DNA from: Escherichia coli
Lineage (GTDB): Bacteria > Pseudomonadota > Gammaproteobacteria > Enterobacterales > Enterobacteriaceae
Reading direction: 5' to 3' (one strand)
NCBI RefSeq assembly: GCF_003334335.1
Contig: NZ_QOWQ01000224.1
Length of the DNA stretch: 290 bases
Part shown: piece by piece, positions 1 to 290 of the stretch
Position numbering within the stretch: the stretch's first letter is position 1
How the letters are laid out: each line of letters starts with the position of its first letter
Made by a program: the position numbers and the translations under genes
The notes under the pieces: model-generated
Databases searched by the model: none
The model's input: only the letters and a program-made list of their open reading frames with translations
Told to the model about the DNA's origin: nothing

Positions 1-42
1 TGAGCTCAGCCAGTCGTACTCGTTTTCCGGGTGACGGAACAT
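1..42 (-). CDS. 5' end of a downstream minus-strand gene (N-terminus MFRHPENEYDWLSS...), product unknown; partial, continues beyond the window
   Basis: ATG at 42..40 shares its A with the upstream TGA (TGATG). The frame stays open for 14 codons to the window edge, using preferred codons (CGT, CCG, GAA, CTG). There is no separate Shine-Dalgarno, as expected for a translationally coupled gene. Only 42 nt are visible, so this could be a chance open frame. Confidence 0.45.
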   Translation of the reverse strand, partial: MFRHPENEYDWLSS

Positions 43-263
43 CAGTTCAGGGTGACGCTCATCAGCCGGACATACGGGCCAAAACTGTCCTTACGGCGTT
101 CTGCAAATACAGCCAGCACACCGGGAATATCCTGCACTTCACGACCGGTATACGCTTCAGTGCCACCATGCCAGCGGTATTTGCCGGTACAGAACGGAAA
201 AAGACGGGATGCAGGATGCTGACGGTGAATACGCATGGCTTCACCACGGGTGATGATTTTCAT
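42..263 (-). CDS. Small basic hypothetical protein (73 aa), function unknown; probably a lambdoid prophage early-region protein, tentatively YdfC-like
   Basis: Complete ORF with ATG at 263..261 and TGA at 44..42. Codon usage strongly favours enterobacterial preferred codons (CGT x7, GGT x4, CTG, GAA, AAA, ACC, CCG). An AGAGG Shine-Dalgarno sits 9 nt upstream of the ATG. The stop overlaps the start of the next minus-strand ORF. The prophage/YdfC resemblance is from memory only and is not verified. Confidence 0.8.
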   Translation of the reverse strand: MKIITRGEAMRIHRQHPASRLFPFCTGKYRWHGGTEAYTGREVQDIPGVLAVFAERRKDSFGPYVRLMSVTLN

Positions 264-272
264 AGTGTGATA

Positions 273-277
273 CCTCT
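273..277 (-). promoter_or_regulatory. Shine-Dalgarno / ribosome-binding site for the 73-aa ORF
   Basis: The minus strand reads 5'-AGAGG-3' (plus strand cctct at 273..277), with a 9-nt spacer (272..264) before the ATG at 263..261. Confidence 0.6.
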
Positions 278-290
278 GAAGACAGAAGAT

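Follow-up and report, generated by a model that had tools for sequence, protein, structure and literature searches.

The 27 nucleotides ahead of a DUF987 (YeeT-like) gene of Escherichia coli: very probably a non-coding leader

The closest described relatives of the protein considered here are YeeT (CP4-44), YkfH (CP4-6) and YpjJ (CP4-57) of E. coli K-12, which belong with it to family PF06174 (DUF987), have the same length of 73 aa and the same MKII N-terminus, and are encoded in the same neighbourhood of antirestriction, RadC, DUF987, CbeA-type antitoxin and CbtA-type toxin genes. YeeT, YkfH and YpjJ have been proposed as candidate antirepressors but, unlike Rem, they did not derepress dicBp and showed no DicA antirepressor activity (PMC10448788). 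DUF987 proteins are multi-copy in E. coli, and the position of the gene start, which is the subject of this report, does not bear on their role.

Two familiar arrangements of a bacterial translation start offer themselves for comparison. In a canonical Shine-Dalgarno-led site in the spacer of a polycistronic operon an ATG follows a ribosome-binding motif, and likewise here the ATG has GAGGU 8 nt upstream; the only oddity that separates our site from the canonical one is that all three frames are free of stops over the preceding 27 nt, which chance alone would give in 27-44% of cases. With gene pairs coupled through ATGA or TGATG our site has in common the ATGA tetranucleotide at the start but, unlike in such pairs, no upstream ORF ends here, the RadC gene having stopped 68 nt earlier.

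The window, by which we mean the whole 290-nt stretch of DNA that was analysed, holds a 73-aa ORF at 263..42 on its minus strand (MKIITRGEAMRIHRQHPASRLFPFCTGKYRWHGGTEAYTGREVQDIPGVLAVFAERRKDSFGPYVRLMSVTLN). A match of at least 90% identity to the window was found in 4,810 of the 5,426 complete E. coli genomes (about 89%), with a median of three and a maximum of 15 copies of window-like sequence per genome and about 13,000 copies in total, and 13 complete E. coli chromosomes match it at 100% identity. These matches always lie under a coding sequence annotated as "DUF987 domain-containing protein", and in some records the close copies are labelled yeeT by PGAP. The features of the window on which the argument turns are the following.

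Window 42..263, minus strand: DUF987 (YeeT/YkfH-like) coding sequence, 73 aa plus stop, with a product identical to WP_001405861.1 as annotated in NZ_CP013025.1
Window 261..263, minus strand: ATG start codon of the 73-aa DUF987 protein, placed by the PGAP calls, Pfam, PHROG and the conserved ATG AAA ATC ATC
Window 260..262, minus strand: the TGA that closes the +1 frame and overlaps the start as ATGA; it terminates no gene and arises from ATG followed by AAA (Lys2)
Window 272..277, minus strand: Shine-Dalgarno motif AGAGGT, 8-9 nt before the ATG, with predicted pairing to the 16S 3' end
Window 264..290, minus strand: predicted untranslated 5' leader of the DUF987 gene, formed by the final 27 of the 68 nt that separate RadC from DUF987

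In locus L001, a record identical to the window, window positions 290..264 correspond to 4001-4027, between the end of the RadC coding sequence at 3959 and the start of the DUF987 coding sequence at 4028. The gene order of L001, all on one strand, is antirestriction, RadC, DUF987, CbeA antitoxin, CbtA-family toxin, DUF5983, DUF957 and DUF4942, and a second 100%-identical record (L002) has the same layout, so that the one-strand order of the CP4-44-type module was confirmed in both. The genes needed here are placed as follows.

L001 3483-3959, gene strand: RadC (RadC/JAB-family)
L001 4028-4249, gene strand: DUF987
L001 4412-4780, gene strand: cbeA
L001 4870-5244, gene strand: CbtA-family toxin gene
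L001 5241-5729: DUF5983 gene

The locus is thus a CP4-44-type genomic island module of E. coli which carries a CbeA/CbtA type IV toxin-antitoxin pair. The present allele, WP_001405861.1, differs from K-12-like YeeT alleles at few residues (e.g., R14 instead of Q14 and G34-T35 instead of S34-A35) and it adjoins yghD/gspL, whereas yeeT of K-12 lies at the CP4-44 site.

An earlier note on this DNA, made from its letters alone, had pointed out that the nature of the 27 nt at 264-290 and the true start of the 73-aa ORF could be read in more than one way, and its observations were accurate. Translation of the minus strand gives IFCLQRYHT-M(KIIT...) in frame 0, which is open to the edge of the window, and SSVFRGITL* in the +1 frame, which is likewise open and ends in a TGA at 262-260 that overlaps the ATG at 263-261. 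Of the codons named there as rare, AGG occurs in frame 0 and the other three (AGA, ACA, CTA) in frame +1, and AGAGG stands at 277-273, 9 nt ahead of the ATG on the minus strand. To these we add that the third minus-strand frame (LLSSEVSHYENHHPW*) is also without a stop across 264-290.

Open frames over so short a distance carry little information. Among simulated 27-mers the probability that one given frame is open was 0.65-0.78 depending on base composition, that both frames named above are open 0.42 (uniform composition) to 0.58 (spacer composition), and that all three are open 0.27-0.44, again depending on base composition. The openness of the upstream frames is what chance would give and is nothing unusual, since nine codons without a stop are the expected outcome and since the spacer, with little G and A, offers few chances for TAA, TAG or TGA. 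The TGA within ATGA has an equally simple origin, because the protein begins with Met-Lys, a pair that the family conserves and that ATG AAA encodes. An open ORF at the edge of the window, or an ATGA at a start, is therefore not evidence for a longer protein or for a coupled upstream gene.

A longer protein, the first of the readings raised by the earlier note, would have its in-frame start beyond the edge of the window (...IFCLQRYHT-MKII...), and the frame does continue for 69 open codons in L001, back to a TGA at 3818 inside RadC. In the Escherichia-type copies the in-frame stop lies as far off as -174 to -210, and initiation at a non-canonical codon is conceivable from the sequence, the only near-cognate codons of this frame in L001 being ATC at -27 and at -48. 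Neither ATC is preceded by a Shine-Dalgarno motif, however, and among the 69 upstream codons there is no ATG, GTG or TTG, nor is there a canonical start among the 57-69 open in-frame codons of any of the eight Escherichia copies. The extended frame would also overlap the RadC coding sequence out of phase with it, and the 69-aa peptide that it encodes matched no PHROG family. Among the homologues one rare entry, P0015 (127 aa, two members), has ...ITPVFTFIFCLQRYPIMKII... fused to unrelated upstream sequence, but its source is a 1,375-nt contig with a rearranged junction. In other genera the frame is closed near the start, in Klebsiella oxytoca (L005) by a TAA at -18 and in L014, a gut-metagenome contig of Citrobacter type, by a TGA at -30. 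Taken with the family profiles and the substitution pattern described below, these results refute a canonical start outside the window, and we regard the longer protein as most improbable. Were it nonetheless made, a peptide ...LQRYHTMKIITRGE would be expected, and with a start at 263 the GluC peptide (f)MKIITRGE.

The second reading had 264-290 as the C-terminus (...SSVFRGITL*) of an upstream gene coupled to DUF987 through ATGA, or, as a variant, as the end of a RadC protein extended by readthrough of its TAA. The +1 frame, open over the 27 nt and with its TGA on the ATG, does coincide in the Escherichia copies with the RadC frame past the RadC TAA (L001 3957), and spacers of 62 and 68 nt keep the same phase. 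That TAA, however, lies 68 nt before the ATG, and the RadC C-terminus (...FAEHGLL*, ...AEHGWL*, ...AERGWL*) and the position of its stop are conserved across lineages. From the TAA to the TGA run 23 codons (PVTVTTTSHLFSLLSSVFRGITL) without an ATG, GTG or TTG, no ORF of at least 20 aa ends at the TGA of ATGA in L001, and the 23-aa peptide, too, matched no PHROG family. TAA is the stop codon least prone to readthrough in E. coli, which counts against the variant. The claim of a coupled upstream gene is thus refuted, and in either form we find this reading scarcely credible. At L001 5241-5244, in the same island, a genuine 4-nt overlap is annotated between the CbtA-family gene and the DUF5983 gene; the ATGA at which YeeT begins is, by contrast, without function.

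As there is no canonical start codon in either upstream frame, no upstream gene ends at ATGA and the protein has no canonical extension. Of the two things that the earlier note had thought would secure the simple 73-aa call, an in-frame stop just beyond 290 did not materialise, as the stop sits 183 nt past the edge of the window, inside RadC, and the lack of an ORF ending at 260 did. The question of the start is settled despite the distant stop because of the missing upstream start codons together with the comparative data.

The homologues support the called start. Pfam PF06174 (DUF987) matches the protein with an E-value of 4.6e-39 and 132.6 bits, residues 1-65 aligning to positions 1-65 of the 65-position model, and PHROG 14887 matches residues 1-73 (E = 5.4e-37). 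Both alignments begin at the called Met, which argues against a longer protein. In a set of 277 homologues a length of 73 aa and an MKII start are shared by every large cluster (those of 123-1,914 members), and also by P0089, P0108 and P0112 (the last-named from Citrobacter amalonaticus), which are about 70% identical. The entries of 87-127 aa have only 1-7 members each, and each turned out to be a C-terminal run-on, a junction at an IS or a rearrangement, an internal duplication or, in one case, a frameshift fusion. In all eight E. coli paralogues examined PGAP places a 222-nt coding sequence with this same start. The comparison of start positions among homologues that the earlier note had recommended therefore bears out the called Met. 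No NCBIfam model matched the 73-aa protein, an 82-aa extended version or the 37-aa downstream ORF, PADLOC gave no match, and a sequence search of the PDB gave no significant match and hence no solved structure that would define the N-terminus. We found no published start-site or N-terminus data for yeeT, DUF987, ykfH or ypjJ in the literature, and the names yeeT, ykfH and ypjJ are absent from the TRAINSPOTTER supplements. Among the homologues of unusual length, an internal duplication is seen in P0001 (120 aa), and internal insertions of 26 aa interrupt P0036 and P0037 (99 aa each).

A search of genome contigs with the single protein returned four loci, two of which were unusable, one being a 464-nt "Mesorhizobium" contig and the other lying at the edge of a MAG contig. 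The former (L004, NZ_JAFCGY010000134.1; coverage 0.74) is filed as Mesorhizobium caraganae and carries an E. coli-like yeeT, and so does the latter, a Lachnospiraceae MAG contig (L006, CAKRJY010000038.1). The yeeT-like sequence in these two contigs has 92-100% identity, and it probably reflects contamination or mis-binning in the assemblies.

The DNA of the spacer was compared at two depths. Among eight sampled copies from E. coli and Escherichia albertii, the Escherichia-type RadC-DUF987 spacer is either 62 or 68 nt long, the difference being a 6-nt tandem copy of GTCACC, and in L001 (3960-4027) it contains CA-rich repeats. Within the 27 nt the E. coli paralogues vary only at -5, -2 and -1 (window 268, 265 and 264), and AGAGGT is invariant in the eight E. 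coli and E. albertii copies. Read in frame 0 the substitutions at these three sites would all be non-synonymous (H>P, T>I), a further point against a longer protein, and in frame +1 two of the three would be non-synonymous (T>P, L>S) and one synonymous.

The more diverged lineages were represented by L005 (K. oxytoca), L014 and L015, of which L014 has the order Antirestrict, RadC, DUF987, CbeA_antitoxin of a CP4-44-type module. All three share with L001 the codons ATG AAA ATC ATC, and the DNA upstream of these is unrelated: the spacers of the four loci cannot be aligned except for a purine-rich motif, which takes the form GAAGAGGAAGGG, GGAG and GGGAGAG in L005, L014 and L015, respectively. From the RadC stop to the ATG there are 15 nt in L005, 11 nt in L014 and 13 nt in L015, against 68 nt in L001, and in L005 and L014 another +1-frame stop (TAA or TGA) stands immediately before the ATG. 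The phase of the RadC stop relative to the ATG is 0, 1 or 2 by lineage and differs among L005, L014 and L015, and therefore RadC has no fixed frame relationship with DUF987, which tells against a coupled or read-through upstream frame. A conserved start and Shine-Dalgarno motif below upstream DNA that cannot be aligned and that varies in phase is the signature expected of a true start behind a spacer that would be non-coding.

The ribosome-binding site itself is of the ordinary kind. The part of AGAGGT that pairs with the anti-Shine-Dalgarno sequence is GAGGT (276-272), 8 nt before the ATG, and through GAGGU, at a spacing of 7-8 nt, the 20 nt that precede the ATG are predicted to pair with the 16S 3' end ACCUCCUUA at -7.1 kcal/mol, an energy that places them among the best 4% of 20-mers of the 8.3-kb locus. 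The Shine-Dalgarno motifs of the three Klebsiella- and Citrobacter-type lineages reach -8.7 to -9.2 kcal/mol, and no occluding structure is predicted at the start site of the present gene. The earlier note had preferred to read the 27 nt as a 5' UTR, with AGAGG serving as ribosome-binding site for a start at 263, and every test (frames, profiles, homologues, comparative DNA and pairing energy) supports it in this. An internal start at Met10 was also considered and rejected, having a pairing energy of -2.8 kcal/mol and no Shine-Dalgarno motif, and residues 1-9 are conserved at the protein level across genera and lie within the Pfam model.

We therefore consider it very probable, on the DNA and its homologues, that 264-290 (minus strand) is the non-coding 3' part of the RadC-DUF987 spacer, with the start at 263 and a 73-aa protein beginning MKII. 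The tightly packed, same-strand gene order makes it probable that the spacer belongs to a polycistronic mRNA shared with RadC. Translation of DUF987 would then probably begin independently at the ATG at 263, where the GAGGU 8 nt upstream would direct the ribosomes, as the sequence and its conservation suggest, and the product would be the 73-aa form beginning MKII. The start of this gene is already correctly placed by standard annotation, which makes the result ordinary and already known; it confirms the 73-aa annotation of the DUF987 gene and has little wider consequence.

A spacer that does not code might still regulate. It could control the yeeT-cbeA-cbtA part of the operon as a structured RNA, as an internal promoter or through a Rho-utilisation site, and we rate this as unlikely. 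Three features speak for it: the length of the Escherichia-type spacer (62 or 68 nt vs 11-15 nt in Klebsiella- and Citrobacter-type loci), its composition (C24, T22, A15 and G7 over L001 3960-4027), C-rich, G-poor composition being typical of rut sites, and its near invariance among paralogues. The paralogues are, however, 91-100% identical throughout, so that the conservation of the spacer is uninformative, the spacer is dispensable in other genera, and no Rfam, fold, promoter or terminator signal was found in the spacer. In Rfam (E-value mode) the best matches over L001 3800-4500 had 17-20 bits against gathering thresholds of 38-100, and were chance matches to eukaryotic or archaeal snoRNA models. 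The spacer with the first 33 nt of the coding sequence folds no better than its shuffles (z = -0.62), and a scan of L001 3400-4900 for sigma-70-like promoters and terminators gave as many hits as expected from shuffled sequence, and on the gene strand none of them fell in the spacer. That the longer, C-rich and G-poor spacer of Escherichia is a functional leader, be it a Rho-utilisation, RNA-processing or entry site, is accordingly a proposal to which we give little credence. If it were true, an element in the spacer could uncouple or silence the downstream yeeT-cbeA-cbtA toxin-antitoxin segment in horizontally acquired islands.

Several other ORFs overlap or adjoin the DUF987 gene. A 44-aa ORF in the +2 frame (L001 3916-4050, plus strand, GTG start) overlaps both RadC and YeeT; it was rejected as a gene, is missing from loci with a short spacer, and is found in databases only as a frameshift fusion to YeeT (P0016, 98 aa, three members). 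On the opposite strand, two antisense ORFs overlap the DUF987 coding sequence. One covers window 31-222 (plus strand; 63 aa, GTG start), and the other runs from window 168 to beyond 290 (plus strand; L001 3956-4123, minus strand; 55 aa, ATG start) and so covers 264-290; the latter is not conservable in the other loci because the spacer is only 11-15 nt long there. Within codons 4-8 of YeeT lies a perfect palindrome, TCACC-CGT-GGTGA (window 241-253, minus strand; L001 4038-4050), which was flagged as terminator-like on the antisense strand, where it is followed by TGATTTTCAT; sites of this kind are no more frequent in the region than in shuffled sequence.

Downstream, a 37-aa ORF, MFRHPENEYDWLSSDAAVDEALLINEYTFTEGGLRAG, occupies window 42..1 on the minus strand (L001 4249-4362), with an ATG that overlaps the YeeT TGA as TGATG. 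It is the 3' remnant (about the last 36 codons) of a DUF8835 gene, which is intact at 214 aa in the paralogue L013 (432-1076), and it has 93% nucleotide identity with intact paralogues over 166 nt. About 550 bp have been deleted, the left junction falling exactly at the YeeT TGA, and the ATG of the 37-aa ORF exists because the deletion junction at the YeeT stop creates it. The remnant follows the present allele, whereas copies of the K-12 type (L009) have a different short stub there, MSRIIATTGPFLADFL. The records at L010 689-831 and L013 432-1076 (NZ_OZ547038.1, WP_000086755.1) bear the product name "DUF8835 domain-containing pootine", an apparent typing error for "protein".
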